Below the pieces are notes generated by a model that saw nothing but the letters and a program-made list of their open reading frames with translations, was not told the origin of the DNA and did no database searches. DNA of 40,940 bases from assembly GCA_046539225.1 (NCBI GenBank), contig JBKHHG010000002.1, positions 1-40,940 of the forward strand. The letters run 5' to 3'. The translations under genes were made by a program, and so were the position numbers. Source of the stretch: Candidatus Nanohaloarchaea archaeon. Lineage in GTDB: Archaea > Nanohalarchaeota > Nanosalinia > Nanosalinales > Nanosalinaceae. Below are positions 172-40,940 of this stretch, piece after piece; position 1 is the stretch's first letter, and each line of letters opens with the position of its first letter.

Positions 172-549
172 TTAGTTGACTGAGACTTTTCGGCTGTAGT
201 CGAGGCCTCCGACCCTGATAATCCCTTGCTCTCTTAATTCTTCAAAGGCCTCTGGCATAGGATCTGAGTCTGCTCTGTACATTTCATTGCAGCCGTAACA
301 GCCCACTACGTGCGGCTCGTCTTTTTCGTAGTCTTTAACGGTTTCATATACTGGCAGGACCGGCTCGCCGTCTAAAAGTTCCTGGCATTTGGCGTGGCCG
401 ACTGAAAGAACTTCGCACTGCTCGTTCAGGAAGTGGTTGATCGTTCTGACCTGTTCCTTTTCAGGCCTTTCTTTCACGTCATCGGTAATTCTTTCCAGTA
501 GCCTGACTTCTTCCCAGAACCGTTCTCCGTGTTCTTCATGCGGGTGCAT
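172..549 (-). CDS. Hypothetical acidic protein with Cys/His residues (C..H..C, CxxC), between two tRNAs
   Basis: ATG at 549 just 3' of tRNA-Val; the longer ORF-track start overlaps the tRNA; acidic composition typical of this genome. Confidence 0.7.
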   Translation of the reverse strand: MHPHEEHGERFWEEVRLLERITDDVKERPEKEQVRTINHFLNEQCEVLSVGHAKCQELLDGEPVLPVYETVKDYEKDEPHVVGCYGCNEMYRADSDPMPEAFEELREQGIIRVGGLDYSRKVSVN

Positions 550-554
550 GTGGA

Positions 555-707
555 TGGGTTCGCCCGGATTCGAACCGGGGATCTCCGCCAATTTGTGATT
601 GGCTTACCGATCTTCTGATCGGCGACCGCTAAAGGCGGTCATTGCGTATGGATCGAGCGTAACCAATCCTGTCAAGGCGGTGTCATAACCAACTAGACCA
701 CGAACCC
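555..707 (-). tRNA. tRNA-Val(GAC) with a 79-nt intron at 37/38
   Basis: GGGTTCG/CGAACCC acceptor stem, CCGCC-TT-GAC-A^T-GGCGG anticodon arm after splicing, CCCGG-TTCGAAT-CCGGG T-arm, discriminator A. Confidence 0.95.
591..669 (-). other. tRNA-Val intron with a relaxed bulge-helix-bulge splice motif
   Basis: Bulges CA^G and AT^T, central helix TTGA/ACAA (one mismatch), closing helix GATTGG/CCAATC, internal hairpins GACCGC/GCGGTC and CCGATC/GATCGG. Confidence 0.85.
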
Positions 708-781
708 TTTGAGGCCTATGTGTCTTGGTGTTCTGGTTAGGCTTAAATACCTCACCGAACAAGTACTGTTTGTTGGTTGAA

Positions 782-946
782 GTGGCTCCTGAATGTAGTG
801 AATGCGGCGAGGACTTGCACGTGAACTCTGTTGACAGGCCTAACGTTGACTGGGTTAAAGTCGTGTGCTCGAGCTGCGGTCACGTCGAGAATGTTTCGAT
901 GATCCGGCTGGATTCAGATGTCCGTGCCAGGAAAGACAACAATTAA
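782..946 (+). CDS. Small zinc-ribbon protein (CSECG...CSSCG)
   Basis: Two CxxCG knuckles; GTG start downstream of TTAAATA at ~743. Confidence 0.65.
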   Translation: MAPECSECGEDLHVNSVDRPNVDWVKVVCSSCGHVENVSMIRLDSDVRARKDNN

Positions 947-971
947 AATTTGTTCTTCAATACTCTTCTTT

Positions 972-1505
972 ATGGTCAACAAATGGCATGACTACGAGAC
1001 GGGGCCTGATGCTCCGGAAGTTATCAACGCTGTAATTGAAAATCCGACAGGCACGCAGAACAAGTACGAGTACGACAAGGACAAGGAATCAGTAGTTCTG
1101 GACAGAGTACTCTACGCTTCTATCAACTATCCTGGCGACTACGGGTTCATCCCACAGGCATACTACGAAGACGGCGACCCGATGGACATCCTCGTCCTGA
1201 CAACGCACTCAACGTTCCCAGGCTGCGTGATGGAGGTTCGACCGGTTGGAATCCTGTACATGGACGACGACGGGGAACAGGACGACAACATTATCGCAGT
1301 ACCGGAGGAAGACCCGCGCTGGAACAATGTTGAAGACCTGGACGATGTCAACGAGCACAGAAAGAAGGAGATCGCAGAGTTCTTCGCGACATACAAGAAC
1401 CTGGAGCCTAAGAAAGAAGTCGAGATCGAGGGCTGGGGCGGAAAAGAAGAAGCCCATGAAGCAATCGAGAAGTCCCAGAAGCTTTACGAAGAAAACTTTG
1501 AGTAA
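972..1505 (+). CDS. ppa: Inorganic pyrophosphatase (family I)
   Basis: Motifs NKYEYDK, LDRVLY, YPGDYGFIP, DGDPMD, FFATYK; start trimmed to MVNKWHD. Confidence 0.97.
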   Translation: MVNKWHDYETGPDAPEVINAVIENPTGTQNKYEYDKDKESVVLDRVLYASINYPGDYGFIPQAYYEDGDPMDILVLTTHSTFPGCVMEVRPVGILYMDDDGEQDDNIIAVPEEDPRWNNVEDLDDVNEHRKKEIAEFFATYKNLEPKKEVEIEGWGGKEEAHEAIEKSQKLYEENFE

Positions 1506-7309: not shown

Positions 7310-8056
7310 ATGTTTAAAGCAGAAATAGAAGAAGTCGGCCTACTGAAAGACTCGATGAAAACCATTTCAGACCTCATCAGCGAAGGCCTCTTCCAACTTG
7401 AGGAAGACGGTTTAAGACTTGTCGCGGCGGATCCCGCGCTTGTAGGCCTCGTACACTTCAAAATGGAGGAAGACCTCTTCGAAGAGTACGAACTCGACGA
7501 GGAGACAATGGTAGGCCTCAACATTGAAAACCTGTACTCTATTCTGCGGAGAGCAAACGCAAACGACACCATAACGTTCGAACTCGATGATTCACGTTTC
7601 CACATCAAAATGGAGAACTCAAGCACCAGGAACTTCTCCCTGCCGCGCCTGAACCTTTCCGAAGACGATATACCTGAGACAGACCAGCTCGAATTCGACT
7701 TTGAAGCAGAGCTCGAGGCCTCAGTCATTGAAGGAGCTGTAAAGGACGCTATGGTTGTCAGCGACGCTGTAACGGTTTCTGCTAACGATTCTGAGCTTAC
7801 CATAAAAGCGGAAGGCGACCAGAGCAACGCAGAGTTCACTATTACAGAGGGAAGTGAGGGAGTGATCTCTATGGACGGCGATCAGGTGAAATCAATGTTT
7901 TCGCTCGACTATCTTTCCAAAATGATCGGAGGCAAAAAACTGTCGGAGAACGCCACGATCAAGCTCGGAAACGACTTCCCGATGCGGATGGAGTTTGTAA
8001 GGCCTGAAGAACTGGATCTGAGCTTTGTACTGGCGCCTCGTATAGAGGAGGACTAA
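7310..8056 (+). CDS. pcn: DNA sliding clamp PCNA
   Basis: MFKA start, AADPALV, FSLDYL, LGNDFP, LAPRIE end. Confidence 0.97.
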   Translation: MFKAEIEEVGLLKDSMKTISDLISEGLFQLEEDGLRLVAADPALVGLVHFKMEEDLFEEYELDEETMVGLNIENLYSILRRANANDTITFELDDSRFHIKMENSSTRNFSLPRLNLSEDDIPETDQLEFDFEAELEASVIEGAVKDAMVVSDAVTVSANDSELTIKAEGDQSNAEFTITEGSEGVISMDGDQVKSMFSLDYLSKMIGGKKLSENATIKLGNDFPMRMEFVRPEELDLSFVLAPRIEED

Positions 8057-8058
8057 AA

Positions 8059-8295
8059 GTGGGAAAGTTCAGCGCAGTACTCGACAGGAGAGACATCGGA
8101 TCCGCGTTGGACCAAATCTTTTCAGAGATAGAGGATGGCATTTCCTCGGAAGACCTGACCGAACAGGTGAATACGCTCGTCGAACCCGACTATGAAAAAC
8201 GCGATGTAACCTCTGCGCTGAACGAGCTGAGAGACAGGGAGTACGTGACAGGCTACATCGAGGACGGCAAATTCTACTGGGAGCTACAGGACTAA
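8059..8295 (+). CDS. Small hypothetical protein, winged-helix-like
   Basis: Helix-helix-beta-hairpin pattern (DVTSALNELRDREYV...GKFYW); coupled to pcn. Confidence 0.6.
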   Translation: MGKFSAVLDRRDIGSALDQIFSEIEDGISSEDLTEQVNTLVEPDYEKRDVTSALNELRDREYVTGYIEDGKFYWELQD

Positions 8296-8328
8296 GAAAC
8301 TTAACTTTTCATCCATTCCTTTCTCTCT

Positions 8329-8417
8329 ATACGGAAGAGTACGCCATGCCTGCTACAGGCGCCCTGATCTTCAACGAAGACAGTGAAAATTTCATCTCCA
8401 GCTACCTGAAGGATTGA
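8329..8417 (+). pseudogene. Possible remnant of a Nudix hydrolase gene
   Basis: TEEYAMPATGALIFNEDSE resembles a Nudix first strand and runs straight into a short helical end; no Nudix box. Confidence 0.3.
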
Positions 8418-8469
8418 GGCCTTTTGAACTGCCGCAGACAATTTAGTATTTACCGGTTAATTACTCGGT

Positions 8470-9804
8470 GTGGGACACGACCTGAAGGACTGGGAGATCA
8501 GGCAGTACTACGAGCAGGAGGCCTTGAAGCAGAATTTTCTTGAGCTCAGCGAGTACAGGGAAGTCGTGCCCACGTATGAAAACGGCTACGGTAAACGGCC
8601 GGATGCGATAAACTTTCCCGGGGATTTTGACCAGTTCGTGGAGAACGGTGCGGTAGCTTTCCATGCATCTGTCGAGCGCTGGAAGAACCCTCTTCTGATC
8701 GACCAGGTCTCAGATCTTGACGACTTGAGAACAGGCTGGGACCTCGTGCTTGACATCGACTGCGACGAAAGCTTTGACCTGGCGAAGAAGACCGCGGAGC
8801 TTGTGGTGGAGGAGCTGCACCAGCACGGAATAGATAATATATCTGTGAAGTTTTCAGGAAACCGTGGGTTCCACATCGGTGTCAGGGGCGAGGCCTTTCC
8901 AGAGGAGATTGGTGAAGAAAAGTTCTCGGATCTCTATCCTAACCTGGCGAGAGGTATCGTCGACTACCTTAGATCAGAGCTGAAGGATCGGATGGCGAAG
9001 GCTGTAAGGGATCAAGGCCTTGAAAAAGAGATGCAGGTTGACGACGGTGTCGACCCATACCAGGTCTCGGATATTGAAAACGACTGGGGACAGCGCCACC
9101 TCTTCAGAATGCCTTACTCGCTTCACAACGGTTCAGGCCTTGTATCCCTTCCAATCAAACCTGGAGAGATCGCAGAGTTCGAGAAAGAAGATGCGGAGAT
9201 CGAAAACGTGGATTTTGAAACCGGTTTTCTTGAAGAATTCGAGGACGGAGAGGCTACAAATCTCGCGGTCCAGGCCCTGGACTTTATCGAGGAACGCAGG
9301 GAGGAAAAAAAGAAGGAACGGGTTGAGAAAGACTTTGAGAGGCCTGACGACGCTATCCCAGAGCAGTACTTTCCGCCGTCGATTAAAAACATTCTCTCAG
9401 GCCTGGAAGACGGGAGGAAGAGAGGCCTGTTCATCCTCATCAATTTTTACCGTTGCGTCGGCTATGAGTGGGATGAGATAGAGTCGAAGATCTGGGACTG
9501 GAACCAGAGGAACGACGAGCAGCTTAGAGAGGCCTACGTAAAGTCGCAGTTGCGCTGGCACCGGAACCGGGAAGAGGATGTGCCTCCTCCGAACTACGAC
9601 TCCAACGGCTACTACAAGGATATGCAGGTGTACGAGGGCGACAACCTGGAGGAAAAGGTTTCAAACCCTGTGAGTTATGCTTTCAGGAAGGCGAAGAAAC
9701 GCGAGCCTGACGAGGATAAGGAAGAGTTTGTCTGTGAGATCTGCGGCAAGGAGTACCAGATAGAGTCTTACTACAAGGAGCACGTGAAGCAGTGCTTTGA
9801 CTGA
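8470..9804 (+). CDS. Fused primase PriS-PriL (DPANN type) with C-terminal Zn finger
   Basis: WDLVLDID and FSGNRGFH (PriS), FRMPYSLH, PriL-CTD-like FPPSIKNILSGLEDGRKR, terminal CEICG...HVKQC; between pcn and GINS. Confidence 0.92.
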   Translation: MGHDLKDWEIRQYYEQEALKQNFLELSEYREVVPTYENGYGKRPDAINFPGDFDQFVENGAVAFHASVERWKNPLLIDQVSDLDDLRTGWDLVLDIDCDESFDLAKKTAELVVEELHQHGIDNISVKFSGNRGFHIGVRGEAFPEEIGEEKFSDLYPNLARGIVDYLRSELKDRMAKAVRDQGLEKEMQVDDGVDPYQVSDIENDWGQRHLFRMPYSLHNGSGLVSLPIKPGEIAEFEKEDAEIENVDFETGFLEEFEDGEATNLAVQALDFIEERREEKKKERVEKDFERPDDAIPEQYFPPSIKNILSGLEDGRKRGLFILINFYRCVGYEWDEIESKIWDWNQRNDEQLREAYVKSQLRWHRNREEDVPPPNYDSNGYYKDMQVYEGDNLEEKVSNPVSYAFRKAKKREPDEDKEEFVCEICGKEYQIESYYKEHVKQCFD

Positions 9805-9845
9805 AGCACAATGTAAAAAGTTTTCACCTCCGAACTTTAGATAGG

Positions 9846-10466
9846 ATGGAAGCACTCACCTTCAGCGACCTCAGAAGAATCCAGAAAAATGAGAGGAACA
9901 GCGAAGAACTTACAGAGATCGACGATGATTTCATAGTCAAGGCGAACGAATACCTTCAACGCAAAGAGGAAAACGCCGATAGAAGGGAGTACAACTCCTC
10001 GAAAAGAGTGTACAACAAGATAATAGCACTGCGGGAGGAAAAAGTCGTGGAAAACGCCCGTAGAGCACTGCGATCCGACATCAAGGCCTCAGAGCTCAGC
10101 CTTCTGCCCCGGGAAAAAGAACTCTTCAGAGAAACCCGGGAACTATTCGAAAAACACCGTGACCGGTTGAAAGAAGGCCTCGAATCCGAGACCCGGGACG
10201 TGGAGACAGAACAGGAGAGACACGAAGAGGCATCAGAAGAAGCCGAGGACAAAGATATAATTGAAGAGCCCGAAGAAATCGAAGAAGATGAGGCCTCAAA
10301 CGTAGAGGACGGCTACGCCAAGGTGGAGATCATTTCCAACGTGCCGGAGTTCATGGGCACCGACCTCGAAAGCTACGGGCCTTTCGATGAAGGCGACAAA
10401 CCCGTGATTCCTGACGACAACGCAGAGATCCTTGTAAATAGAGGAAACGCCGAGGAAATAAGCTGA
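9846..10466 (+). CDS. GINS subunit (Gins51/Gins15)
   Basis: Helical A domain, acidic linker, B domain PEFMGTDLESYGPF...NAEILVNRG; conserved context. Confidence 0.9.
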   Translation: MEALTFSDLRRIQKNERNSEELTEIDDDFIVKANEYLQRKEENADRREYNSSKRVYNKIIALREEKVVENARRALRSDIKASELSLLPREKELFRETRELFEKHRDRLKEGLESETRDVETEQERHEEASEEAEDKDIIEEPEEIEEDEASNVEDGYAKVEIISNVPEFMGTDLESYGPFDEGDKPVIPDDNAEILVNRGNAEEIS

Positions 10467-10586
10467 AACCTTGTTTCAAAAGCATAACCTTTCTCTTAGA
10501 AATATGCTTGGATTGACTTTCCCGATACAGAGGAGGCCTGTCAATCTAAATAGGCCTTTTTAAAGTTTGGACCCTGAGGTCTATCT

Positions 10587-10889
10587 ATGGTAAAGATTCC
10601 AAAGGAGCAGAGGCGTTACTGCCCTCACTGCGATGAACATACGGAGCAAACCCTGAAGGAAGCGACCAATAGATCCGCGAGTCCGTGGAGCAAGAAGCAC
10701 AGGAAGAGGCAGAGAAAGATCGACAAAGGTTACGGATCATTCCCCTTTGAAGATCCTTCACATCTGAGCAGGGGAGGCAGCAACCCGACATCCAGCAAGC
10801 ACGACCTCCAGTTCACATGCAAGGAATGCGGGAAAAGCTGGAAACCGAGAAACCAGCCGAGAGCTGCAAAGTTCGAGATCGAGCGATAG
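10587..10889 (+). CDS. rpl44e: 50S ribosomal protein L44e
   Basis: KIPK..RRYCPHCDEHT, CKECGK. Confidence 0.93.
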   Translation: MVKIPKEQRRYCPHCDEHTEQTLKEATNRSASPWSKKHRKRQRKIDKGYGSFPFEDPSHLSRGGSNPTSSKHDLQFTCKECGKSWKPRNQPRAAKFEIER

Positions 10890-10902
10890 AGGCGATACAA
10901 AA

Positions 10903-11076
10903 ATGGCAGAAGACTTTGTCAAGGTAGAATGTGGAGAATGCGGAAACAAGCAGAACATCTATTCCCGGGCCAGCACAGAGGTAGAGTGCTTGGTATGCAG
11001 GGAGACAATCGCAAGGCCTACCGGTGGAAAAGCCGAGATCAACGGCCAGATCCTCCAAGAACTCGAAGTAGAGTAA
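10903..11076 (+). CDS. rps27e: 30S ribosomal protein S27e
   Basis: Hand translation: MAEDFVKVECGECGNKQNIYSRASTEVECLVCRETIARPTGGKA. Confidence 0.95.
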   Translation: MAEDFVKVECGECGNKQNIYSRASTEVECLVCRETIARPTGGKAEINGQILQELEVE

Positions 11077-11079
11077 GCA

Positions 11080-11283
11080 ATGGCTCTCTTCGAGAGCGAA
11101 AGATTTCTGGATTCTTACATTGTTTCCCTTAAACTTTTGATCGCGGCCTTCTTCGGAGCACAGCTCTCAATCTAACTTAACGATCCTTTGACTATCCAGG
11201 TTATCAAGCTTTCTGTTACTTTATTAGTAGGTGTAGGCCTCCTCTATCTTGTAAACAGTTTGGAGGAAAAGTTCAGGCCTTGA
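11080..11283 (+). pseudogene. Small two-TM membrane protein gene broken by in-frame TAA (11173-11175)
   Basis: MALFESERFLDSYIVSLKLLIAAFFGAQLSI*LNDPLTIQVIKLSVTLLVGVGLLYLVNSLEEKFRP*. Confidence 0.65.
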
Positions 11284-11331
11284 GCAGCCCCGGATAATGA
11301 CTTTTTAAGAATCACTTTTTATCTTGTAACT

Positions 11332-12078
11332 ATGGAATGGTACAAGGACAGGCCTGATGAAGGAGATTTCGTGGTAGTTGAGATAACGGATGTTGACAAG
11401 AACTCGGCGTACGCCGACCTTGAAGAGTACGACGATATTCGAGGACTGATCCATATATCTGAAGCAAGCAGGAGCTGGGTCCAGGACCTTACAAAGGAGT
11501 TAAGCGAAGGGGAGAAGACTGTTGCCCAGGTTGTCGATACTGAAGATACTATAGGCCTGTCTTTGAAACGTGTAAACAATAATCAGAAGCGTGAAACGAT
11601 GGAGCGCTGGAGGAAGGAGCAGAAGGCCGAGGACTTTATTGGAGACCTTGAGGAAAAGATTGATGTCGACAGTATCTATGAGGACGTTGTTTTTCCGCTT
11701 CAGGAAGAGCTTGGCTCTTCTTTCCAGGGCTTTGAGATCTCGATTGCTGAGGAGGAACGACTGAAAAAGTTTTTAGACGACGAGGTTGTTGAGGCGATCC
11801 AGGAGGTCGCCCGTGAAAACATTGACCTGAAGCAGGAGAAGTTTGAAGGCAAGCTGGACGTAGAGTTTTACCAGGGTGACGGCCTTGAAAGGATTAAAGA
11901 GGCCTTCGAGGAGCCGGGTGAAGGCGTTGAAGTTAAATGTATTTCAGCACCTAACTACTCGATTGAGGCCTGGGGCAGGACTCAGGAACTGGCGAAGAAA
12001 CGTATGGATGACGCGGTTGAGAAAATCCGTTCAAAGGTTGAAGAGCTTGATGGAGAGTTCGAGTTCTCAAAGGCATAA
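11332..12078 (+). CDS. eif2a: Translation initiation factor aIF2 alpha
   Basis: S1 domain PDEGDFVV, GLIHISE, LSLKRV, ISAPNY. Confidence 0.95.
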   Translation: MEWYKDRPDEGDFVVVEITDVDKNSAYADLEEYDDIRGLIHISEASRSWVQDLTKELSEGEKTVAQVVDTEDTIGLSLKRVNNNQKRETMERWRKEQKAEDFIGDLEEKIDVDSIYEDVVFPLQEELGSSFQGFEISIAEEERLKKFLDDEVVEAIQEVARENIDLKQEKFEGKLDVEFYQGDGLERIKEAFEEPGEGVEVKCISAPNYSIEAWGRTQELAKKRMDDAVEKIRSKVEELDGEFEFSKA

Positions 12079-12083
12079 AAACA

Positions 12084-12233
12084 ATGATAAGAAAATGTAC
12101 TGAATGTGAGGCCTACACCCTCAGTGATAAGCACTGCGGGGGGGATACCGTGACTTCGAGGCCTCCAAAGTTTTCGTTTCCCGATAAGTACGGCAAGTAC
12201 CGTAGAAAGACCAAGAAAGGTGAACAAGAATGA
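12084..12233 (+). CDS. nop10: H/ACA RNP protein Nop10
   Basis: Hand translation: MIRKCTECEAYTL...PPKFSFPDKYGKYRR; canonical position after aIF2a. Confidence 0.93.
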   Translation: MIRKCTECEAYTLSDKHCGGDTVTSRPPKFSFPDKYGKYRRKTKKGEQE

Positions 12234-12991
12234 CTACCGAGATTACCGTCGATGAAGAACTCGACCTGGAAAATCCTCTACTGATTGAAGGCCTTGCAGG
12301 TATCGGCCATGTCGGAAGAAACTGTGTAAGCTACCTGTCCGAGAAGCTTGGCGCCGAACAGGTGGGAATCATAGACTCGCATCACTTCCCGCCCTATACT
12401 ATAGTTGAGGATGACAAGAGCTTGACACCGCTGCAGAACCAGATCTATCATCTGGAGCTTGAGGACCGCGACGTCGTCATGATAGAGGGTAATGCTCAGG
12501 CCTCTTCGGCAGAGGGACATTACGAGATCGCCCACAGGGTGCTTGACTTCGCTGACGAGATCGGGGTGGAGGAGATAATCACGATCGGCGGCTATGGGAA
12601 AGGCGATGTAGTTGAAGAACCCGAAGTCTTCGGGGCTGTCACCTCTCAGGATGTCAAGTCAGATTACACCAATTACGGTATCAGCTTTGACCACGATGTC
12701 GGCCAGATAGTCGGTATCTCAGGCCTTCTGCTTGGACTGGGAGAGCAACGCGGTAAAAAAGGTATAGCGCTTCTCGGTGAGACACCGGGGTTCCTGATGA
12801 GCGATCCCAAGTCGACGGAGGCCGTTCTCCAGGTTATGGAGCAGATTCTCGATGTAGATCTGGATTACTCAGATCTCGATGAAAAAGTTGAAGAGTCGCA
12901 AGAAGTGCTTAAAAAACTTCAGAACCTTAAAGGTTCACAGGAAGCCGACGATCAGCAACAGCAGGGCAGCGATCTCGGCTACATAGGGTGA
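12230..12991 (+). CDS. PAC2-family proteasome assembly chaperone-like protein
   Basis: [40 protein letters not shown] end. Confidence 0.92.
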
Positions 12992-12999
12992 CAAATAGA

Positions 13000-13158
13000 A
13001 TGGAATACACAAGATACGAGAGAGCAAGAGTTCTCGGTGCGAGAAGCCTTCAGATCGCTATGGGCGCCCCTACATTTGTAGAAGAAGACGGGGAAGATCC
13101 TATCGATATAGCTGAGAGAGAACTTGAGCAGGGACAGCTCCCGATCACGGTAAAATAA
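13000..13158 (+). CDS. rpoK: RNA polymerase subunit K (Rpo6)
   Basis: Hand translation: [24 protein letters not shown]...LPITVK. Confidence 0.95.
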
Positions 13159-13198
13159 CAACGTTTTCTTTTTTACTTGTACCCCCCAAATTTCATGT

Positions 13199-14320: not shown

Positions 14321-14430
14321 GAAAGGGGGAAGGCCTTCACCGTATTTCTTCTTTTTCTCTACTGTATAGTTTTTGAGGTTTCTGAGCCAAAGTCGAGCGG
14401 TATTTAACTTTTGGTATTTAAATCGGGTGT

Positions 14431-25451: not shown

Positions 25452-25460
25452 CGTGTATTT

Positions 25461-25532
25461 GCGGCGATGGTCCAGCGGCTAAGACTCTGGCCTTCCAAGC
25501 CAGCAACCCGGGTTCAAATCCCGGTCGCCGCA
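25461..25532 (+). tRNA. tRNA-Gly(TCC), intronless, CCA not encoded
   Basis: GCGGCGA/TCGCCGC acceptor, CTGGC-CT-TCC-AA-GCCAG, CCGGG-TTCAAAT-CCCGG. Confidence 0.97.
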
Positions 25533-25606
25533 AACAAGTTTTGCTCGGTTCCAGGGAGTTGAATCAGCAGAAAACTTGTTTTCAAGTTCAAATCCTGATA
25601 GCCGCA
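25532..25606 (+). repeat. Hairpin plus degenerate copy of the tRNA-Gly 3' end
   Basis: AAACAAGTTTT/AAAACTTGTTT inverted repeat (25532-25542/25571-25581), then GTTCAAATCCTGATAGCCGCA versus tRNA GTTCAAATCCCGGTCGCCGCA. Confidence 0.8.
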
Positions 25607-26019: not shown

Positions 26020-26226
26020 TCACGTCTTTGCCGCTGAAGGCGAGAAAAACTTTACGCTGCCGTTCTCCAGAGGCCTCCACTCTCCCTGAACCTTTTCATC
26101 GATTCTCAGGCCTTTCTCAAAGTTGAAGGCCCTGGAGTTGACCGCATCGAGCAGAACCTCTTCAAGCTCCTCGGCTTTGAACAGTGTTTCTTCCTTCCCC
26201 GCCCTTTGTACTCTCATCCTGTACAT
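26020..26226 (-). CDS. Small hypothetical protein
   Basis: 68-aa ORF with ATG start and a TTAAATA-like box upstream. Confidence 0.6.
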   Translation of the reverse strand: MYRMRVQRAGKEETLFKAEELEEVLLDAVNSRAFNFEKGLRIDEKVQGEWRPLENGSVKFFSPSAAKT

Positions 26227-26293
26227 TGCATCAACTACTTACCCGGTGCAGGGTATTTAACTCGACCCTCGGCTTTCCAGAAGTCCGAAAAGT

Positions 26294-27505: not shown

Positions 27506-27576
27506 AACTGTGTTTTGTTGCTGGATGTTTTTGAAGAGTGGTTAGTTCTTTAACTCTGCGTTTTTTATTGAGATGT

Positions 27577-28482
27577 ATGATTGAGTATATTCTTTCCGCT
27601 GCAGTGTTTGTTCTTGGAGGCGTTATTCTCTACCTTGTGAAGACCGTCAATGATCTTAAGACTACGGAGGTCGAAGTCGATGGTGAGAAGGTCAGGGGTG
27701 CGGTCAGCGAGTCCTGGCAGAAGCTGGAGCTCGGGGAGAAGATCAAGTCGCTGGAGAAAGAGGTTGAAAACGTGGGGAAGGAGGCGGATGAGATCGAGTC
27801 GCTTCACCGCAACCTTGAGACAATGCTTGAAAACCCCAAGGAAAGAGGAGAGTTCGGTGAGAGAAAGCTTGAGGATATTCTATCCGCGCACCTCCCCGAG
27901 TCGATGTACAGCTTCCAAGGACGGGTCGCTGGAAAGAGGCCTGACGCCTACATCGAATCCTCAACAGGAAAAGTCTGCATAGACTCAAAGTTTCCTTTAA
28001 GCAATTTCCGGAAGATGCAGGAGGCAGAAGACGATGAAGAAGAGGAGAAACACGCGAGAAAGTTTCGCAGAGACGTGGAGTCGCAGCTTGAAGAAGTAGC
28101 TTCAAAGTACGTCAGGCCTGACCAGGGCACGACGGAGTACGCAGTCGAGTTCGTCCCAAGCGAAAGAGTCTACTACTACCTTGTAAAGGACGAGTACAAC
28201 CTCCTGCACGAGTACACGAAAAAAGGCGTTCAGATCGCAAGCCCGTTAACCCTGAGCCAGAAACTCGAATTGATCAAGAGAGATGTCCACACCGCAAAAC
28301 TATCGAAAAAGGCGGAAGACATCGAGCAGCAGCTCCAAGAGATCTCCAGCTCTTTCTCGGATTTCGAGTCTAAATGGGAGACCTACAGGAAACACATCAA
28401 GAACGCAAAGTCAAAATCCGACGAACTCGAATCCTCATTCTACAACCTGAAACAGAGATTCCAGACTGTCAACGACCTGTAA
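27577..28482 (+). CDS. rmuC: RmuC-family membrane-anchored nuclease-fold protein
   Basis: N-terminal TM, coiled coil, RGEFGE..LE.IL, RPDA, IDSKFP, KYVRP, FVPSE. Confidence 0.92.
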   Translation: MIEYILSAAVFVLGGVILYLVKTVNDLKTTEVEVDGEKVRGAVSESWQKLELGEKIKSLEKEVENVGKEADEIESLHRNLETMLENPKERGEFGERKLEDILSAHLPESMYSFQGRVAGKRPDAYIESSTGKVCIDSKFPLSNFRKMQEAEDDEEEEKHARKFRRDVESQLEEVASKYVRPDQGTTEYAVEFVPSERVYYYLVKDEYNLLHEYTKKGVQIASPLTLSQKLELIKRDVHTAKLSKKAEDIEQQLQEISSSFSDFESKWETYRKHIKNAKSKSDELESSFYNLKQRFQTVNDL

Positions 28483-28518
28483 AAAACCGGTAAAAAGCTT
28501 GCCCTCTACATAATTTTC

Positions 28519-28845
28519 ATGGACGAATTTCAGGCCTTGGAACAGTACGAAAAAATCGATTTGAACGAAGTGTATAAGGATTTCCAGAAGATTATAGGTG
28601 ATGTGCTTGACGCCCGAAAGGAGAACAGGCCTTACACCGCAAGCCAGCTACCTGAAGGTTTTACAGTTCAGGATCTGGATAACTTCGACTTCGGATTCGA
28701 GGCCTCAAAAGAGTACACTGAATTAACCATGGATGTACGTTACGAGGAGCGTTCCGGCGGAATGTTCGGGGAGAAGGACTCCTCAACTGTAGAAGTTGAA
28801 GTAGACGATCACATCTTCACAGAGAACTGGAAGCACGGATTCTAA
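28519..28845 (+). CDS. Hypothetical acidic protein
   Basis: 108-aa ORF with typical codon use. Confidence 0.7.
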   Translation: MDEFQALEQYEKIDLNEVYKDFQKIIGDVLDARKENRPYTASQLPEGFTVQDLDNFDFGFEASKEYTELTMDVRYEERSGGMFGEKDSSTVEVEVDDHIFTENWKHGF

Positions 28846-28885
28846 CAGAGTTAGGATAAAAAGTTTCCACGACAAAAACCTGTAC

Positions 28886-31393
28886 GTGAGAAAGGCCTCT
28901 TCCATCGACAAACTCTACAGCAAAGTAAAAAATTACGATACTGTTGTAACGGCTGACGCCTCCCTCGCCGATGCTTTAAACCGTCGACTCGACAGGCCTG
29001 TACAGGGAAAGTTCGCAGCCACCCCAAAAAGGCTTGCCTCGGAAAACTACGAGACAAGAAGAGAGGTATTCATCAGAATCGTCAACGAGACCGGCCTTTC
29101 CTACAAACAGGCCTCCTACGGGCTTGACAAGACGCTTGAGGCCTGGAAACATACCGGGGAAATAGATGGCGTGCTTAAATACCGGGAAAACGATATTTTC
29201 CAGGAAACAGTAGATTTCCTTAAAAACTGCGATACTTCTTTCAACCAACTAAAGTCTTTCAGGCTTGAAGGCGACATAGCCGTTATAAACTTCTACAAAT
29301 TCAACGAACTCGACAAAAAAATCTTGCCCGAAAGCTTTGACCGTTTTGAAATGCTTGAAGACGAGGAAACAGGGTTTGAAGAGTTCAACATCTTTGAATC
29401 AGGCCTCGACATCGTGAAGTCGCTTATCCAAAATATTGAAAGAGTGGGAGCGGAAAACTCGGCGGTAGTCGTCGACCCGGAATCCAAGTACCAGAACCTT
29501 ATAGAGTCATACCTCAAAGCAGAAGAAATCGACTTCACACACCAGGAAAAAATATCTGAAAACGAGGAGCTCAGAGCCTTCCTCAACATTCTTGAAATCG
29601 GAGAATCAGATCGAAACCTTCGAGTAAGAGACGTAAAACCGGTGGCAGAAAAATTAGGCCTTGAAACAGGAAACGAAAACGCTTTCCTCGAAAAAACTGA
29701 AGGCCTCGAAGAGTTCAAAGAATTCATGAACGTTATAGAGTTCATGAAGGTTGAAGAGGCCTTAAAACAGTTTGAAAAGCTTTCAAACAACGAATACCCT
29801 GAAATCCGATCATTGATAAAAGAGCTTAACCTGGAAGAAGCTGAGAACTCGAGACAGAATATTAACAGGATAAAATACTTCCTGAAGGATTTCGACAGAA
29901 TGCTGAATGAGGAGACCAGCGGAGTGCTTCTTGCGGATCCCAAACAGGCAACGGTCGTCGACAGGCCTATAGTCTTCTACATAGGCATGAGTTCGGACTG
30001 GAATCAGGAGACGCCGAGAGATGAATGGGTTAAGAACCAGGAGTTTGAAGAAAAGAAGCTTAAAGACTTTCAAATACTTTTACAGAACGGAGACCAGCAG
30101 GTCTACATGGTAGAGGACAAAAAAATGGAGGAAGACGTTAAACCATCTTTCTTTTTCGATGAAATAATTGGAGAAAATGTTTCAAGCTTCAGAGAGCTGC
30201 CGCACAGCTTTAAATCATCAAAAAATAGTTTAAAACCCAAAAAATTTGATAAAAAAAATCTTGAAACCTCTGATATAGAGTTTTTAAGCCAGTCAGGCCT
30301 CAACAGCCTGGCACAGTCTCCAAGACTGTTCTACATGTCACAGCTTGTATCAGACAGCGACGAAGAGAATTTGAAAAAGGGAAGACTTTTCCATGACTTT
30401 GCAGAGCTTTACTTCAACAGGCCTGAGATAAAAAAGAGTATTGAAGAAGTTAGAGAGCTTTTCTTAGAGGAGATGGGGGAAGTAGTTGACGAGGCGTCTC
30501 TCAACCGGGTGAAGACGGAGATAGATCATGGATTAGAGAATATAATGGATTTTGTGGATGAGAAAAAGGTCTATTCTGGAAGAGGTTATACTAAACCGGA
30601 GGATAACGACAACTTTTTTGCAGAGGCCTTTGAAATTGATTTGGAAAGTGCTTCGACGGAGATGTACTTCAAAAACCGCAAGAAAAGGATTAAAGGTAAA
30701 GTGGATTTGCTGGAGGGGGAGAGACATGTTATTGATTTCAAATCTGGAAGGAAGAAGAGCAGGAAGGAAGTTGTGAAGAGTTCAAGAGTTGAGACTTTCG
30801 AGAATCAGCGTTTTCCCAATTTCCAGACTTTAATGTATCTCATGCATCATTCTGATCAGGTAGACGGCGAAATCAGGTTCACTTACCTCTATTTTTTGAG
30901 CGATCTCGGGGATTCGCTGGGCGGAAAAGACGCCGAGAACGCGACAACTGTAAATTATTATCCGGAAACGTTCCAGGAAAAGACCTTGACAACTGAGGCG
31001 TTTGAATACTTGATTAAAGATGTTAAAAAGTCGAATGATCGGAGGAAGACGCTGGAAAAGCTCGGTTACTCAAAATACAGAGATTTTATGAGAGAATACC
31101 AGGTTCCAAGGGTTTTTGATAAAGATGAGTTGCTAAGTTCCGAATTTGCCGAGGCCTTTGTAGATTTATGCATAGAATCCGTGGGCGACTACAAGTACGT
31201 TAAAAGCGGTGCAGAGTCGGCGCTGAGAAAGCTAATTGAGTACAGGAATACAAGGCTCTTTAGTGATGATGCGGAGAGGCTTGAGGAGTTTGTAGATGAG
31301 AAGATTGAAGAACTGGAAAGTTTTGAACATAAAGGCTATCCTGTAGATGCAAAGGCCTCTGAGCTCCCTATGGAGGATTTGATAGTTGAATGA
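28886..31393 (+). CDS. AddB/AdnA-like subunit: degenerate helicase scaffold plus PD-(D/E)XK nuclease
   Basis: No Walker A; LSQSGLN...SP, GRLFHDFAE, IKGKVDL...VIDFKSG, FQ..MYL; overlaps the next gene. Confidence 0.85.
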   Translation: MRKASSIDKLYSKVKNYDTVVTADASLADALNRRLDRPVQGKFAATPKRLASENYETRREVFIRIVNETGLSYKQASYGLDKTLEAWKHTGEIDGVLKYRENDIFQETVDFLKNCDTSFNQLKSFRLEGDIAVINFYKFNELDKKILPESFDRFEMLEDEETGFEEFNIFESGLDIVKSLIQNIERVGAENSAVVVDPESKYQNLIESYLKAEEIDFTHQEKISENEELRAFLNILEIGESDRNLRVRDVKPVAEKLGLETGNENAFLEKTEGLEEFKEFMNVIEFMKVEEALKQFEKLSNNEYPEIRSLIKELNLEEAENSRQNINRIKYFLKDFDRMLNEETSGVLLADPKQATVVDRPIVFYIGMSSDWNQETPRDEWVKNQEFEEKKLKDFQILLQNGDQQVYMVEDKKMEEDVKPSFFFDEIIGENVSSFRELPHSFKSSKNSLKPKKFDKKNLETSDIEFLSQSGLNSLAQSPRLFYMSQLVSDSDEENLKKGRLFHDFAELYFNRPEIKKSIEEVRELFLEEMGEVVDEASLNRVKTEIDHGLENIMDFVDEKKVYSGRGYTKPEDNDNFFAEAFEIDLESASTEMYFKNRKKRIKGKVDLLEGERHVIDFKSGRKKSRKEVVKSSRVETFENQRFPNFQTLMYLMHHSDQVDGEIRFTYLYFLSDLGDSLGGKDAENATTVNYYPETFQEKTLTTEAFEYLIKDVKKSNDRRKTLEKLGYSKYRDFMREYQVPRVFDKDELLSSEFAEAFVDLCIESVGDYKYVKSGAESALRKLIEYRNTRLFSDDAERLEEFVDEKIEELESFEHKGYPVDAKASELPMEDLIVE

Positions 31394-34077
31394 ACCCGAA
31401 TAAGGAACAGGAAAAATTGATTGAAGAAACTGAGGGATGTTATCTCGTGGACGCGGGAGCAGGCACCGGTAAAACCTTTACAGTAACTGAAAGGTACGTC
31501 GAGATTCTTGAAGAAGCAAGACCTGACGATATTTTTCTTTCTACATTCACCAGAAACGCTGCCGAGGAGATGAGCGAGAGGATAGCGGAGAAGTCGAGCT
31601 ACAGGACTTCAGAGATCTATAATGCTCCGATCTCGACTTTCCACAGTTACTGTCAGGGCGTGCTTGAAAGGCATGGATTCAACACTCCAGAAGAGCTGGG
31701 AATTGATGAAGAAATTGAAAGTATTGAAACCCTTGAAAGCAAGATAAGGGAGCTACAGTACTTTGAATCTTTTTACGGAGACTTTAAAAGCCGTAATCCT
31801 GAGTTTGAAGGTTTTTACAGTGTTGTAAATGATAGCGGTGAGCTTCTCGATCTTTTGAAGTCGCTTGCAAGCCGTGGAGTAATTCCCGAAGAAAATGGAT
31901 GGTTCCTGAACTCTGAGGAGTATCTTGACGGAGATTATGACACCTTTAGAGAGCTTTTTAAAGAAGTCAATAGGCCTCGAGATGGGAAAAACGGCAATAA
32001 AAAGCAGAGTGTTCTCCGTCAGAGGCTTTACAGTTACAGGTACAAGGACTTTCCGGAGGATGCGCCCAAGTACTCGGATATTGCCGGGGATTATGGCTGT
32101 AAACAGGTCAGGAAGGATTTTATGCGTAAGGCCTTTGAGGAGGATCGTGAAGAGTTGAAGGAGTTTGTAAGGAGGCTTTACTTTGAGTATATGGAGCACT
32201 GCTTGAGGAACAGCTATCTTAATTTTGGTTTTATAATGGCTCTGGCTTATGTGACGCTTTACAGCAGTGATGAGGCCAGAGAGTCGGAAAGGTTTGATTA
32301 TCTTATGATTGATGAGTTCCAGGATACGAATGAGATCCAGCTGAAGATTTCGTTGCTTCTGGCGGAGAGGCCTAATATCTGTGTTGTTGGGGATTGGAAG
32401 CAGTCTATTTACTCTTTTCAGTACGCTGATGTCGATAATATCAGGAAGTTTGAGGAGCGTATGAATCAGAACATTGAGGAGCTTAATTCTGACCGGAGGA
32501 GGGTAAGTTTTGATTCTGTAGAGGTTGACAGAGTTGATTTGAAGAGGAATTATAGGTCTACGCAGGAGATTCTGGATTCTGCGGAGCAGAGCTTTACGTT
32601 GCGGGGAAATGATTATGAAACCGTGGAGCAGCCAGATCTTGTGAGTCTTGAATCAGAGGCCTCGCATTCTCCTGGCGAGGTTGGCAAGCTTCTCTGCGAA
32701 AATGAGAATGAGAATCTGCTGCGTATGGTGCAGAAGGTAAAGATGGAGGGCAGTATCGGTGGCGAGGACCTGAGTTATTCGGATATCGCTGTTATTTCCA
32801 GGACCAGGAGTTTTGGACTGGATCTCCAGGATCTTGCTGATGTTTACGGTATTCCAGCGGCTTATGAAGGCGGTATTGAGCTTTTTAATACGTCTGAGGC
32901 GAAGATTTTGCTTGCGTGGCTGCGTGCGTTGCAGGATTCGCGTAAGGGCTGGGCCGTGATTCTGGAGAGGACAGGTTACAGTCTGAAGGAGGCGGAGAAG
33001 ATTCTGGAGGAAGATGAGATCCCTGAGAATCTTCTTGAGTTCCATAACGTTCTTGAGGAGATGGAAGGCCTTGAGAGCCAGATGCGGGCTGTGTTTGAAA
33101 GGTACGGGCTGGAGAACCCGGTGACCGAGAAGGTTATCGATGTTTTGACCGATGTCTACAGGTCGAGCTTTATGACTTCTGGCGAGCTTGTGCAGTTTAT
33201 CGAGGATAACATTGAGGAGAAAGAGATATACGAGGTCGATACGTCGCGCGAGAGGGACTGTGCCAAGATCCAGACGATTCACGGCGCCAAAGGCCTTGAG
33301 TACCCCGTGGTTTTTGTGGCGGACGTGAACCAAGGCCGTTTCCCGTCGACTAACGGCAACTACAGGCCTGTAACTTTTGATGATGTGACGGGTCTGCGGC
33401 AGAGAAAGGTTTTCAGGCCTGAAGAGGGCTACGTGTTTGATAACTGGCGTTCGGAGATTCTCTCGAAATGTACCGGCGGGAGGTACGACGAGGAGCGAAG
33501 GTTGATGTATGTTGCGATGACCAGGGCGGAAAAGTATCTTTACATTTCTGCTGAAGAGGAGCGGAAGAGCAAGTTTTTCGAGGATCTCGAGCTTGAAACT
33601 TCTTTCCTGTCGGAGAGGCCTGAGGAACAGGACTCCCAGGAAGAAAGGGGCGAGGTGCTGAAGGTTGTGCCGCCCAAGGCCTCGAGGAGAAGACTTGTAT
33701 CTACGACAGAGGAGATCGATCTGGAGGAGGAGAGAACAGGTAACACCGGTTACGGCAAAGATCTGCATAGATTCGTGAAGCAGTACCTTGAAGGCAAAGA
33801 ACCCGAGAACCTTGAACAGCGTAAAATTGCGGAGAAGATTGACTCGCTTACAGGAGAGAAACAGGCAGAGGTCGAGTTTGCATTACCCAGAGAGGAACGA
33901 GTTTACACAGGCAGAGCCGACCTTGTAGCAGTTTCAGATGAAAAGATAAAGGTTGTAGAGTTCAAGACTTCCGACAGCTTTGAAGAAGCCTACACCGAGC
34001 AGCTGAGAATCTACAGAGAGGCCTTCCAGGAGCTCTACCCCGGTAAAGAGGTTGATGCAGAGGTCTTCCTGGTTTAG
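31390..34077 (+). CDS. AddA/AdnB-like UvrD (SF1) helicase with C-terminal PD-(D/E)XK nuclease
   Basis: AGAGTGKT, TFTRNAA, STFHS, IDEFQDTN, VGDWKQSIY, NYRS, TIHGAKGLE, YVAMTRA, GRADL...VEFKT. Confidence 0.93.
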   Translation: MNPNKEQEKLIEETEGCYLVDAGAGTGKTFTVTERYVEILEEARPDDIFLSTFTRNAAEEMSERIAEKSSYRTSEIYNAPISTFHSYCQGVLERHGFNTPEELGIDEEIESIETLESKIRELQYFESFYGDFKSRNPEFEGFYSVVNDSGELLDLLKSLASRGVIPEENGWFLNSEEYLDGDYDTFRELFKEVNRPRDGKNGNKKQSVLRQRLYSYRYKDFPEDAPKYSDIAGDYGCKQVRKDFMRKAFEEDREELKEFVRRLYFEYMEHCLRNSYLNFGFIMALAYVTLYSSDEARESERFDYLMIDEFQDTNEIQLKISLLLAERPNICVVGDWKQSIYSFQYADVDNIRKFEERMNQNIEELNSDRRRVSFDSVEVDRVDLKRNYRSTQEILDSAEQSFTLRGNDYETVEQPDLVSLESEASHSPGEVGKLLCENENENLLRMVQKVKMEGSIGGEDLSYSDIAVISRTRSFGLDLQDLADVYGIPAAYEGGIELFNTSEAKILLAWLRALQDSRKGWAVILERTGYSLKEAEKILEEDEIPENLLEFHNVLEEMEGLESQMRAVFERYGLENPVTEKVIDVLTDVYRSSFMTSGELVQFIEDNIEEKEIYEVDTSRERDCAKIQTIHGAKGLEYPVVFVADVNQGRFPSTNGNYRPVTFDDVTGLRQRKVFRPEEGYVFDNWRSEILSKCTGGRYDEERRLMYVAMTRAEKYLYISAEEERKSKFFEDLELETSFLSERPEEQDSQEERGEVLKVVPPKASRRRLVSTTEEIDLEEERTGNTGYGKDLHRFVKQYLEGKEPENLEQRKIAEKIDSLTGEKQAEVEFALPREERVYTGRADLVAVSDEKIKVVEFKTSDSFEEAYTEQLRIYREAFQELYPGKEVDAEVFLV

Positions 34078-38589: not shown

Positions 38590-38616
38590 ACCTTAACTCT
38601 CAAAAAACAAAACTAT

Positions 38617-39141
38617 TTAATCCTCCAGATTCTTCGTCAACTTTCGATCCTTGCTGGGCTCGACCTCTAACTCTGCACCGGGGAAATCATTGTCAAGAGG
38701 CCTCTCCTGAAGCCGGTCCAGGAAAACCGCCAGAGCCGCTATCTCGCTGTGAGGCTGGTTCCCAACCGAGATATTGTAGTCGACGTGAGTGTACACCCAT
38801 CTCGGGACTTTTTCCGCGCCCACCACCACGAGAAGATCCTCGCCGTCGAACTCCTGCCTCAGGCCTTCAATCTTTTCCTCTACTTCTTCACCGTACATGG
38901 TAAGGTGGACTTTGAGGCCTTCAAACTGCTTTACCTCCCGCTTCCAGTCCTCGGTATACCTTACATTCATATCTCCGCCCCACCTTTCAATTATATCTCG
39001 CTGCGACTCCAACATCTTTGAATCTCTTTCACCTGAGAACACTACTTCACTGGCGCCCCACTGCCTTGCTGTAAGGCCTACATGCGTGGAGATCCTGTCA
39101 TCTCTTCCCGCTCGATGGCCAAGCCGGAGAACCTTTATCAT
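38617..39141 (-). CDS. trm56: tRNA (cytidine56-2'-O)-methyltransferase
   Basis: VLRLGHR..RD.R.STHVGLTAR, VHLTMYG, VVGAEKVP, NQPHSEIAALAVFLD. Confidence 0.96.
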   Translation of the reverse strand: MIKVLRLGHRAGRDDRISTHVGLTARQWGASEVVFSGERDSKMLESQRDIIERWGGDMNVRYTEDWKREVKQFEGLKVHLTMYGEEVEEKIEGLRQEFDGEDLLVVVGAEKVPRWVYTHVDYNISVGNQPHSEIAALAVFLDRLQERPLDNDFPGAELEVEPSKDRKLTKNLED

Positions 39142-39177
39142 ATTCTTCGATAACGTGGAGAAGATTATTAAGAATGA

Positions 39178-39257
39178 GAGCCCGAGACATTAATACCAAT
39201 GAAAGGTGGACACCCTACTCCACGACCACGTATCTCCAGCTCAGAGCTTTAACTCTG
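39178..39257. ncRNA. Possible structured element between divergent trm56 and thrS
   Basis: GAGC..GAGAC/TATCTC..GCTC outer stem, GTGGA/TCCAC inner stem, CAGAG/CTCTG hairpin; G-U pairs favour the minus strand. Confidence 0.25.
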
Positions 39258-39300
39258 GCGCCCAAAACCCTTTCTATCAAAACGTAAAAGTTGATTCTCA

Positions 39301-40940
39301 ATGATCCAAGTAGAACTACCAGACGGCTCAAGTTTAGATATAGAGGAAAACTCGACAGTAGAAGACGTCGCCTACAAAATAGGCACAGGCCTCGGCGACG
39401 ACACCGTCGCAGGAAAAATAAACAACGAACTCGTCGCCAAAGAAGAAAAAGTCAACGAAGGCGACAAAATAGAGATAATAACAGAAGACTCAGACGAATA
39501 CATCGACGTCCTCAGACACTCCGCCGCCCACGTCTTCGCACAGGCATTAAAACGCATCTACGGCGACGACGTAAAACTGACAATCGGGCCGTGGACCGAC
39601 GAAGGCTTCTACTACGACATCAAAGGAATAGAAATCGAAGAGGAAGACTTCGAGGAAATCGAAGAAGAAATGGAGAAGATCGTAGAAGAAGACCTGGAAA
39701 TAGAGCGGGAAACGCTTTCAAGAGAGGAAGCAGAGGAGTTCTTCGAAGACAACGAATACAAGAGGCAGATTCTGGATGAAGAGGCCTCTGAAGGAGACGA
39801 TGTGTCGTTCTACACACAGGGAGAGTTCAAGGACCTGTGTAAAGGACCTCACGTTTCCTCGACTGGAGAGGTCGGCGGCTTCAAGCTGCTGGAGATCGCT
39901 GGAGCGTACTGGAGAGGCGATGAAGAAAACGAGATGCTGACCCGTGTCTACGGAACCGCTTTCCCATCCGAGGACGAGCTTGAAGACTTTATGGAGAAGA
40001 AGCGGGAGGCGGAGAAACGCGATCACAGGAAGATCGGTCGGGAGATGGATCTTTTCTCGGTTCCGGAGCATGCTCCTGGGGCGCCACATTACCATAGAGC
40101 CGGGATGGTTATCAGGCGAGAGCTTGAAGAGTACATTAGAGAGAAGAATGAGGAGCTTGGTTACGAGGAGGTATGGACTCCTGAACTGAATAAGGCCGAT
40201 CTCTGGAAGAAGACCGGGCACTACGAAGCGTTTAAGGAGGACGGCGAGATGTTTGCCTGGGAGCAGAACGATGAGGAGTACGGCTTGAAGCCTATGAACT
40301 GCGCCAACCACTCGCATATCTTCGACTCCAACACAAGAAGCTACAAAGACCTTCCTATCAAACTTTCCGAGTTCGGAACTGTAAACAGGAATGAACAAAG
40401 CGGAGAGCTTTCAGGCCTTCTCAGAGTAAGAGTATTAACCCAGGACGATGGACACGCCTACATCAGAAAGGATCAAATTGAGGAAGAGATTAAGGCCCAC
40501 CTGGAGAAAATTATCGAGATGTACGACGAGTTCGGGTTTGATGTAAACTTCATCATGGAGACAAAGCCTCCGAAAGCTCAGGGACCCGACGAACTCTGGG
40601 ATGAAGCCGAAGAATCTCTCAGCAACGCAATGGACGAAGTAGTAGGCGACTACGAAGTCAAACCGGAAGAAGGCGCATTTTATGGCCCGAAAATCGGTGT
40701 AGAAGTGGAGGACGCGATCGGCAGAGAATGGCAGCTCGGGACAGTCCAGCTCGACTTCGTAATCCCGCGCAACTACGGATTGAAGTACCAGGGAGAAGAC
40801 AACGAAGAACACTACCCTGTCATGATCCACAGAGCAATTTTAGGATCAATCGAGCGTTTCATGGGCGTCATGATGGAACACTTCGCAGGAGACTTCCCAA
40901 CCTGGCTCGCACCAGAACAAGTCCGCATTTTACCTGTAAC
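39301..40940 (+). CDS. thrS: Threonyl-tRNA synthetase, bacterial-type architecture (TGS + N2 editing + catalytic), runs off the window
   Basis: Hand translation: MIQVELPDGS, LRHSAAHV, GFYYD, DLCKGPHV, AGAYWRGD, RDHRKIG, LKPMNC, GAFYGPKI, MIHRAILGSIERF. Confidence 0.97.
   Translation, partial: MIQVELPDGSSLDIEENSTVEDVAYKIGTGLGDDTVAGKINNELVAKEEKVNEGDKIEIITEDSDEYIDVLRHSAAHVFAQALKRIYGDDVKLTIGPWTDEGFYYDIKGIEIEEEDFEEIEEEMEKIVEEDLEIERETLSREEAEEFFEDNEYKRQILDEEASEGDDVSFYTQGEFKDLCKGPHVSSTGEVGGFKLLEIAGAYWRGDEENEMLTRVYGTAFPSEDELEDFMEKKREAEKRDHRKIGREMDLFSVPEHAPGAPHYHRAGMVIRRELEEYIREKNEELGYEEVWTPELNKADLWKKTGHYEAFKEDGEMFAWEQNDEEYGLKPMNCANHSHIFDSNTRSYKDLPIKLSEFGTVNRNEQSGELSGLLRVRVLTQDDGHAYIRKDQIEEEIKAHLEKIIEMYDEFGFDVNFIMETKPPKAQGPDELWDEAEESLSNAMDEVVGDYEVKPEEGAFYGPKIGVEVEDAIGREWQLGTVQLDFVIPRNYGLKYQGEDNEEHYPVMIHRAILGSIERFMGVMMEHFAGDFPTWLAPEQVRILPV

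Follow-up and report, generated by a model that had tools for sequence, protein, structure and literature searches.

A highly iterated AGGCCT palindrome in nanohaloarchaea with no common DNA methyltransferase among the families tested

The stretch of DNA analyzed here (the window, 40,940 nucleotides) comprises positions 1 to 40,940 of contig JBKHHG010000002.1 from the Candidatus Nanohaloarchaea archaeon assembly GCA_046539225.1, and corresponds to contig C2 of the genome that we designate G000 (606,781 bases, 82% complete). It carries an array of 203 dispersed copies of the palindrome AGGCCT, which has no strand and extends over positions 203..40418, from the first copy at 203..208 to the last at 40413..40418, as delineated by counts, gaps and flank analysis. 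An original prediction, made from the letters of the sequence, held that about 200 copies occur where about 10 are expected, spread evenly at about one per 200 bp in all three codon phases, in genes on both strands and in intergenic DNA. Direct counting bears this out: the zero-order expectation is 9.5 copies (a 21.5-fold excess) and the order-2 Markov expectation 32.6 (6.2-fold), the density is 4.96 per kb with a mean gap of 199 bp, and every full 2-kb bin contains 6-15 copies. The sites are distributed over the codon phases as 37/62/74; 117 lie in genes on the + strand, 56 in genes on the - strand, and 30 are not fully within a called gene (gene calls for phase counts, here and genome-wide, came from a simple purpose-made gene caller). 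The inorganic pyrophosphatase gene ppa (918..1505, + strand) is an exception within the array and carries no copy, and neither does tRNA-Gly(TCC) (25460..25533, + strand), identified with ARAGORN. The statements made beforehand were broader, that tRNAs lack the word and that it is sparse in ppa and thrS, but ARAGORN finds one tRNA rather than several, and a scan of 45 open reading frames (ORFs) of the window revealed no thrS. The related word TGGCCA is as rare as claimed, with 3 copies in the window.

The same pattern extends to the whole genome. G000 contains 2,850 AGGCCT against 141 expected (about 20-fold zero-order, 5.9-fold order-2), or one per ~210 bases, and the word is found on all 38 of its 38 contigs at 1.7-5.8 copies per kb. 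The runner-up palindromic hexamer is CCCGGG, with 195 copies and a 3.4-fold order-2 excess, and none besides AGGCCT ranks higher. A second family genome, G005, does not show the CCCGGG enrichment. Contigs X1 and X2 of a public sequencing run match window positions 8001-28000 in long pieces with few differences; they may stem from the source sample and so not be independent. The strain differences (the best 40 of 123) include one AGGCCT loss and one gain, too few for inference. As a separate feature of composition, CTAG is near absent from G000 (133 copies, observed/expected ratio (O/E) 0.06), and occurs 1,457 times in G005 and 3,541 times in G066, a genome of the same genus as G005; no PF01555 methyltransferase was found in the 82% complete assembly of the CTAG-poor G000.

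A codon, dipeptide or composition artefact might be invoked for such counts, and the order-4 Markov ratio of AGGCCT in G000, only 1.11, could be read in its favor. This ratio is low because AGGCCT itself accounts for most occurrences of the pentamers AGGCC and GGCCT. Synonymous codon shuffles of G000 genes yield 86/177/176 copies in the three phases against 442/917/1160 observed (~5-7-fold each), which excludes a single dipeptide as the cause, as had been argued. Intergenic O/E is 31.9 in G000 and 38.1 in G005 compared with 1.2 in G066, where the word occupies just 283 of the 2,955 places that the encoded proteins permit (9.6%). The artefact explanation is refuted by these observations. AGGCCT in this nanohaloarchaeon is a real, DNA-level, frame-independent highly iterated palindrome (HIP), behaving much like HIP1 (GCGATCGC) and the alternate HIPs described in cyanobacteria (PMC4390886, PMC5861425, PMC13756078).

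Permitted places are mostly filled where the palindrome is abundant, 2,425 of 3,080 in G000 (79%) and 3,407 of 4,627 in G005 (74%). Expressed as odds relative to background codon use at synonymous positions, the preference is 37 in G000, 35 in G005 and 1.5 in G066. Since the odds of 35-37 within genes agree with the intergenic ratios, the same force acts inside and outside genes. The proteins themselves are affected: tripeptides compatible with AGGCCT occur at 1.5-2.2 times expectation in AGGCCT-rich genomes (enumerated below) and at 0.93-1.19 times in G066, a change capable of distorting analyses of codon use, selection and phylogeny in these DPANN archaea. With rising protein conservation, the density of compatible peptides in G000 drops from 16.6 to 7.2 per 1,000 codons while occupancy stays at 0.76-0.90. 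In the rRNAs of G005 there are 3 copies, compared with 17.5 predicted from the density of the genome. Weak amino-acid preferences yield to the force, but rRNA does not. Occupancy depends little on position within the gene. Upstream of start codons we observed a peak of sites at -20 to -11 (46 in G000 and 72 in G005) and a dip at -10 to -1 (12 and 10, respectively).

Variants of the word indicate how it is recognized. Where the full word is disallowed, AGGCCC and GGGCCT are favored 4.5-7.9-fold, a factor near the square root of 36; the remaining end changes are at 1.2-2.7-fold, inner changes at 0.5-1.9-fold and double end changes at 0.3-0.9-fold, with the exception of CGGCCA (1.4-1.5). GGCC with other flanks is not favored (GGGCCC 0.3-0.5, TGGCCA 0.5-0.6; GGGCCC, TGGCCA and CGGCCG together 0.3-0.7). 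Once amino-acid and codon effects are corrected for, position +1 is preferentially C or T, +2 is preferentially T, and both +3 and +4 are preferentially A (z 15-27, compared with no more than 5.4 in controls). This preference is seen intergenically too and gives the context TTNV-AGGCCT-BNAA. AGGCCT is quite possibly the core of a palindromic site of ~14 bp, TTNV-AGGCCT-BNAA, that a protein would read in the model favored below.

Spacing adds a second property. Pairs of AGGCCT less than 30 bp apart are reduced to 0.2-0.8 of expectation, a deficit common to AGGCCC and AGGCCR and not to other palindromes (for which counts are small). Occupancy in G000 is 0.53-0.79 when a neighbor lies within 30 bp and a flat 0.86-0.91 at 30-299 bp. 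Sites act independently of one another unless they lie within ~30 bp. No spacing period was found at 8-70 bp, and none at 5-150 kb in one closed genome, G005 (p 0.15, by our own Fourier test and not the method of Xu et al.). In ortholog alignments 1,074 of 1,228 G000 sites are ungapped and 154 touch a gap, at a background of 10.9% of all codons gapped; AGGCCT arises by substitution, not insertion. Between genera, 296 of 466 positions are filled in both where 286 are expected. Positions are thus almost independent; the excess is significant (p 0.0025) but small, as expected at an occupancy close to saturation. On either side of the sites runs a 10-bp AT/GC wave, and the sites lie in its GC phase. 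As a site-specific signal the wave was rejected, being mostly genome-wide (-0.020 and -0.023 at sites, -0.013 at far controls, -0.009 in G066), and occupancy is independent of it. The coding DNA of G000, G005 and G066 shows this 10-bp AT/GC periodicity genome-wide at synonymous positions, and there are 3-4 histone genes per genome.

These properties bear on the possibility that AGGCCT is a selected binding site. A dimeric protein of the chromatin or nucleoid, abundant and covering ~30 bp of DNA, would bind TTNV-AGGCCT-BNAA, and each further bound site would add a tiny gain in fitness, corresponding to a scaled selection of about ln 36, or 3.6. The extended symmetric flanks would be expected of such a site, the exclusion zone corresponds to the 30-bp step given for archaeal histone dimers in PMC6867714, the sites lie in the GC phase of the wave, their positions are slightly conserved, and Xu et al. 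favor selection in their account of HIP1 (PMC5861425). However, the wave is neither particular to the sites nor related to their occupancy, and there is no periodicity at either scale. Among candidate proteins, histones occur in 5 of 5 genomes, the one paralog compared having no discriminating residue, and a histone-adjacent winged helix-turn-helix protein occurs in 41 of 50; both were rejected as determinants of the trait. Repeated loss of the trait, described below, also suggests a dispensable system. We regard a selected chromatin site as rather unlikely.

AGGCCT is rich, at 2.0-4.7 copies per kb, in 12 of the 50 genomes of the family (G000, G001, G002, G004; G010, G026, G061; G022, G034, G065; G005, G025). 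Two are intermediate, G003 at ~0.95 and G063 at ~0.7 per kb, and the other 36 reach at most ~0.6 (all densities with rounded genome sizes); outside the family, none of 24 genomes is rich. The rich genomes fall into four separate groups in a one-gene RpoA' tree of 33 genomes with weak deep nodes, and G005 and G025 (89%) are nested among poor genomes of their genus, g2 (100%). In a comparison of 321 three-way orthologs, 115 compatible peptides disappeared and 33 appeared on the G066 branch (p 8e-12), compared with 43 losses and 45 gains on the G005 branch, and five control words in the same orthologs give a loss/gain ratio of about 1:1. Leftover sites in G066 are found at 35 of 168 positions that are filled in both G000 and G005 versus 7 of 112 others (p 0.0006). 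The branch losses and leftover sites therefore place the trait in the ancestry of genera g1 and g2, with loss in G066. At least two genera inherited the AGGCCT habit from their ancestor, and the sites decay in a lineage that has lost it. G003 appears to have lost it recently: 15 of 107 permitted places are filled and the peptide excess is still 1.42, compared with 18 of 22 places filled in its sister G002.

No replacement palindrome of similar strength was seen in poor genomes (samples of 2-40 kb, larger for G066). In the poor genome G017 (loci L359 and L192) the top hexamer is AGGTCC/GGACCT, 67 against 35 in 20 kb. Three viral loci chosen by search pattern (L245, L270, L287; 36-43% GC) carry 8-13 AGGCCT in 3 kb and encode proteins that are not halophile-like; in the viral scan, which gave 80 loci among the matches listed, no acidic proteins appeared in the top ones.

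The original prediction had proposed that a cognate GGCC or AGGCCT methyltransferase together with biased repair may maintain the array, with a self-mark or an uptake, recombination or chromatin-binding site as alternatives. Such a mechanism corresponds to the model of Elhai for HIPs, in which methylation of the site by a cognate enzyme lets methyl-directed mismatch repair ratchet up the number of copies. In agreement with this model, the enriched one-off variants of AGGCCT are those changed at an end position, a pattern that Elhai also describes for HIP1 (PMC4390886), and CAGGCCTG, which contains the AGGCCT core, is listed as an alternate HIP, an over-represented palindrome, of Synechococcus sp. 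PCC 6312 (PMC5861425). We looked for PF00145, PF01555, PF02086 and a type IIG query in 50 genomes and for PF02384 and PF07669 in 5, and found no DNA-methyltransferase family common to the rich genomes among those tested. Matches over cut-off in the 12 rich genomes are limited to PF00145 in G004 and PF01555 in G022 and marginally G026, with PF02086 in none; the single-contig rich genome G034 has weak matches only, in five methyltransferase families. Strong PF02384 and PF07669 matches occur only in G022 and G010, the weak PF02384 match of G000 being the window UPF0020 gene, and both families were rejected. So was the type IIG enzyme of G005, whose relatives in 10 of 50 genomes do not match the trait.

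Two family genomes, G020 and G024, encode a C5 methyltransferase beside an NgoPII-family nuclease (L031:1456-3355 and L032:1456-3375), a family that we take to be specific for GGCC. They are depleted in AGGCCT (73 and 97 copies; controls 491 and 344), which is the reverse of what had been predicted; G021 is likewise depleted (55 copies), with no PF00145 match. DNA phosphorothioation by the Dnd system presumably targets GGCC as well, but a search of 5 rich genomes for DndC (TIGR03183) gave 0 of 5, with no control genome over cut-off either. MutS was found in 0 of 5 genomes. The published methylome of SVXNc gives GDGCHC only, in a strain that may not be AGGCCT-rich. Moreover, the density of AGGCCT is ~5 times the ceiling of one per kb stated for the Elhai model (PMC4390886). 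An unrecognized modifying family is conceivable, given that PADLOC covered 233 of the 1,141 G005 proteins. With no methyltransferase common to the rich genomes, GGCC alone not favored and the NgoPII-pair genomes depleted, the cognate-methyltransferase proposal is not supported, and we consider methylation-driven accumulation quite improbable.

Several further modification genes were observed. A type I restriction-modification system in G005 (L090-L091) lies in an AGGCCT-poor island and is likely recent, and the G005 type IIG enzyme (L080-L081) is 83% identical to one in G013. C5 methyltransferase genes adjoin HhH-GPD genes at G013:C77, G063:C85 and G064:C32, the partner being reminiscent, we assume, of a T:G mismatch glycosylase. 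As a candidate determinant HhH-GPD was rejected, being near universal (49 of 50 genomes).

AGGCCT works like a cyanobacterial HIP but comes with no common methyltransferase among the families tested. As with cyanobacterial HIPs, one palindrome stands far above other words, in all frames and also between genes; the sequence around the sites aligns normally, variants changed at the ends are enriched and loss is patchy. It differs in being archaeal and in the density of its hexamer core, given above, where HIP1 is reported at no more than 2.73 per kb. It also differs in lacking MutS and a 5-150 kb period in G005, the 10-90 kb periodicity of HIPs being likewise absent there by the Fourier test, and in having the 30-bp exclusion zone and the TTNV/BNAA flanks. 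Its order-2 excess of 5.9-fold lies below the 16-fold threshold reported by Xu et al., which was set for octamers. In the published counts CAGGCCTG occurs at 0.37 per kb in PCC 6312, so that AGGCCT is ~13 times denser here, and the C..G extension of that octamer is not preferred in G000 (157 of 2,850). Very short patch repair by Dcm and Vsr would be another parallel, but the C5 methyltransferase that partners Vsr is found in only 1 of 12 rich genomes.

The DNA uptake sequence (DUS) of Neisseria and the uptake signal sequence (USS) of Pasteurellaceae are 9-10-bp non-palindromic words tied to competence. AGGCCT resembles them in its thousands of copies, reshaped tripeptide usage and A/T-rich flanks, and one may ask whether, as has been proposed for HIP1, site-bearing DNA is preferentially taken up or passed on and then recombines in. 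Both G000 and G005 encode a pilus-type ATPase and a membrane protein, and HIP1 abundance is reported to correlate with pilus and competence genes (PMC13756078). But AGGCCT is palindromic, occupancy does not saturate at the fragment scale of 30-300 bp, and DprA, rejected as a candidate, is in 0 of the 5 closed genomes examined for it (no search was aimed at ComEC or ComEA). An uptake or transfer sequence is distinctly unlikely.

Chi sites are polar and usually strand-skewed. The window encodes a pair that makes a Chi reading worth considering: an AddB-like subunit with a helicase-like fold and a PD-(D/E)XK nuclease domain (28886..31393, + strand, 14 AGGCCT), and an adjoining AddA/UvrD-like helicase (31390..34077, + strand, 11 AGGCCT), both of them candidates only, the AddB-like subunit as a reader of the site. 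On this reading AGGCCY on either strand would stop resection by AddAB, and the palindrome would count twice. The Chi sequences of AddAB and RecBCD described in PMC4614115 are likewise short over-represented words; the predicted fold of the window AddB best matches Bacillus subtilis AddB (4cej_B, E 1e-11), although sequence searches of the PDB gave nothing significant, and the square-root relation of AGGCCC to AGGCCT would fit two strands. All of the 13 rich or intermediate genomes considered carry AddB (13 of 13), and in genus g2 only the 2 rich genomes of 6 do. Yet it also occurs in 16 of 37 poor genomes, and G003 retains full-length AddA and AddB pieces at contig ends, though its AGGCCT has decayed. 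At 69 AddB-relative loci outside nanohaloarchaea, in haloarchaea and others, enrichment is at most 1.5-fold, except at one locus with 2 copies. The nearest relatives of AddB are nanohaloarchaeal, and 4 of 11 such loci are rich (12.7-26.8-fold). The FAxTPRR helix is the family consensus, and Q203 is a single column against a null mean of 0.35. AGGCCT is a palindrome without skew, and along G005, whose replichores are poorly defined by GC skew, AGGCCC versus GGGCCT shows no cumulative skew. The presence of AddAB does not track AGGCCT, so that the pair was rejected as trait-determining, and a Chi function is very improbable. No Pfam helicase and no PDB sequence matches the AddB family, yet its predicted fold is that of AddB; the family is common in haloarchaea, often on plasmids.

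We consider it on balance probable that AGGCCT reflects an undescribed, methylation-independent archaeal system, in which TTNV-AGGCCT-BNAA is recognized by a dimer that drives its own site, or has it selected, to near saturation (one per ~210 bp). Such a system would rewrite synonymous codons and weakly constrained amino acids throughout the proteome, and would switch off repeatedly, even between sister species. A dimeric protein acting site by site is suggested by the graded half-sites, symmetric flanks and 30-bp exclusion. Because there is no saturation, positions are near-independent and loss is repeated, we tentatively favor a sequence-specific dimer that is not a known DNA methyltransferase and biases local repair or recombination. 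Where two DNA copies or strands differ at a site, the protein bound to TTNV-AGGCCT-BNAA would make repair or recombination retain the site-bearing version, in a patch of ~30 bp. Sites would then build up by molecular drive, with no need for a benefit to the cell. Within a patch already covered, a further site would gain little, hence, we propose, the exclusion zone. Loss of the dispensable protein would stop the drive and the sites would erode.

Several observations weigh against this repair- or recombination-bias model. The search turned up no gene with the distribution of the trait. The gene-content contrast of G000 and G005 minus G066 has one incomplete negative (G066, 82%, lacking core genes) and no whole closed negative, so the absence of a candidate is not the absence of a gene. 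NucS occurs in 5 of 5 genomes, rich and poor alike, and MutS, as noted, in none. Drive and weak selection give the same equilibrium counts, so that the present data do not tell the two apart, and the small but significant conservation of positions leans slightly to selection. Of other candidates, DinB (3 of 5 genomes) is missing in rich G004 and G010, and NreA is near universal (43 of 50); both were rejected.

We found no description of AGGCCT over-representation in archaea in the literature, where a hexamer table in a supplement could hold one; AGGCC occurs 0 times in the main texts of Reva 2024 and PMC10266531. Competing explanations of HIP1 (methyl-directed repair, chromosome structure and DNA uptake) have stayed open for three decades, and an independent archaeal case without a common methyltransferase or MutS suggests that methylation is not required for such a palindrome. 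The family also offers natural on/off pairs in 1-Mb genomes, G002 versus G003 and G005 and G025 versus G066-G069, and therefore the responsible gene should be findable by comparison of gene content.

Window positions 27538-34077 contain RmuC, a small ORF and the AddAB-like pair, and positions 26294-27505 contain an ORF of 403 amino acids whose only match, a weak one, is to archaea-specific SMC-related proteins.

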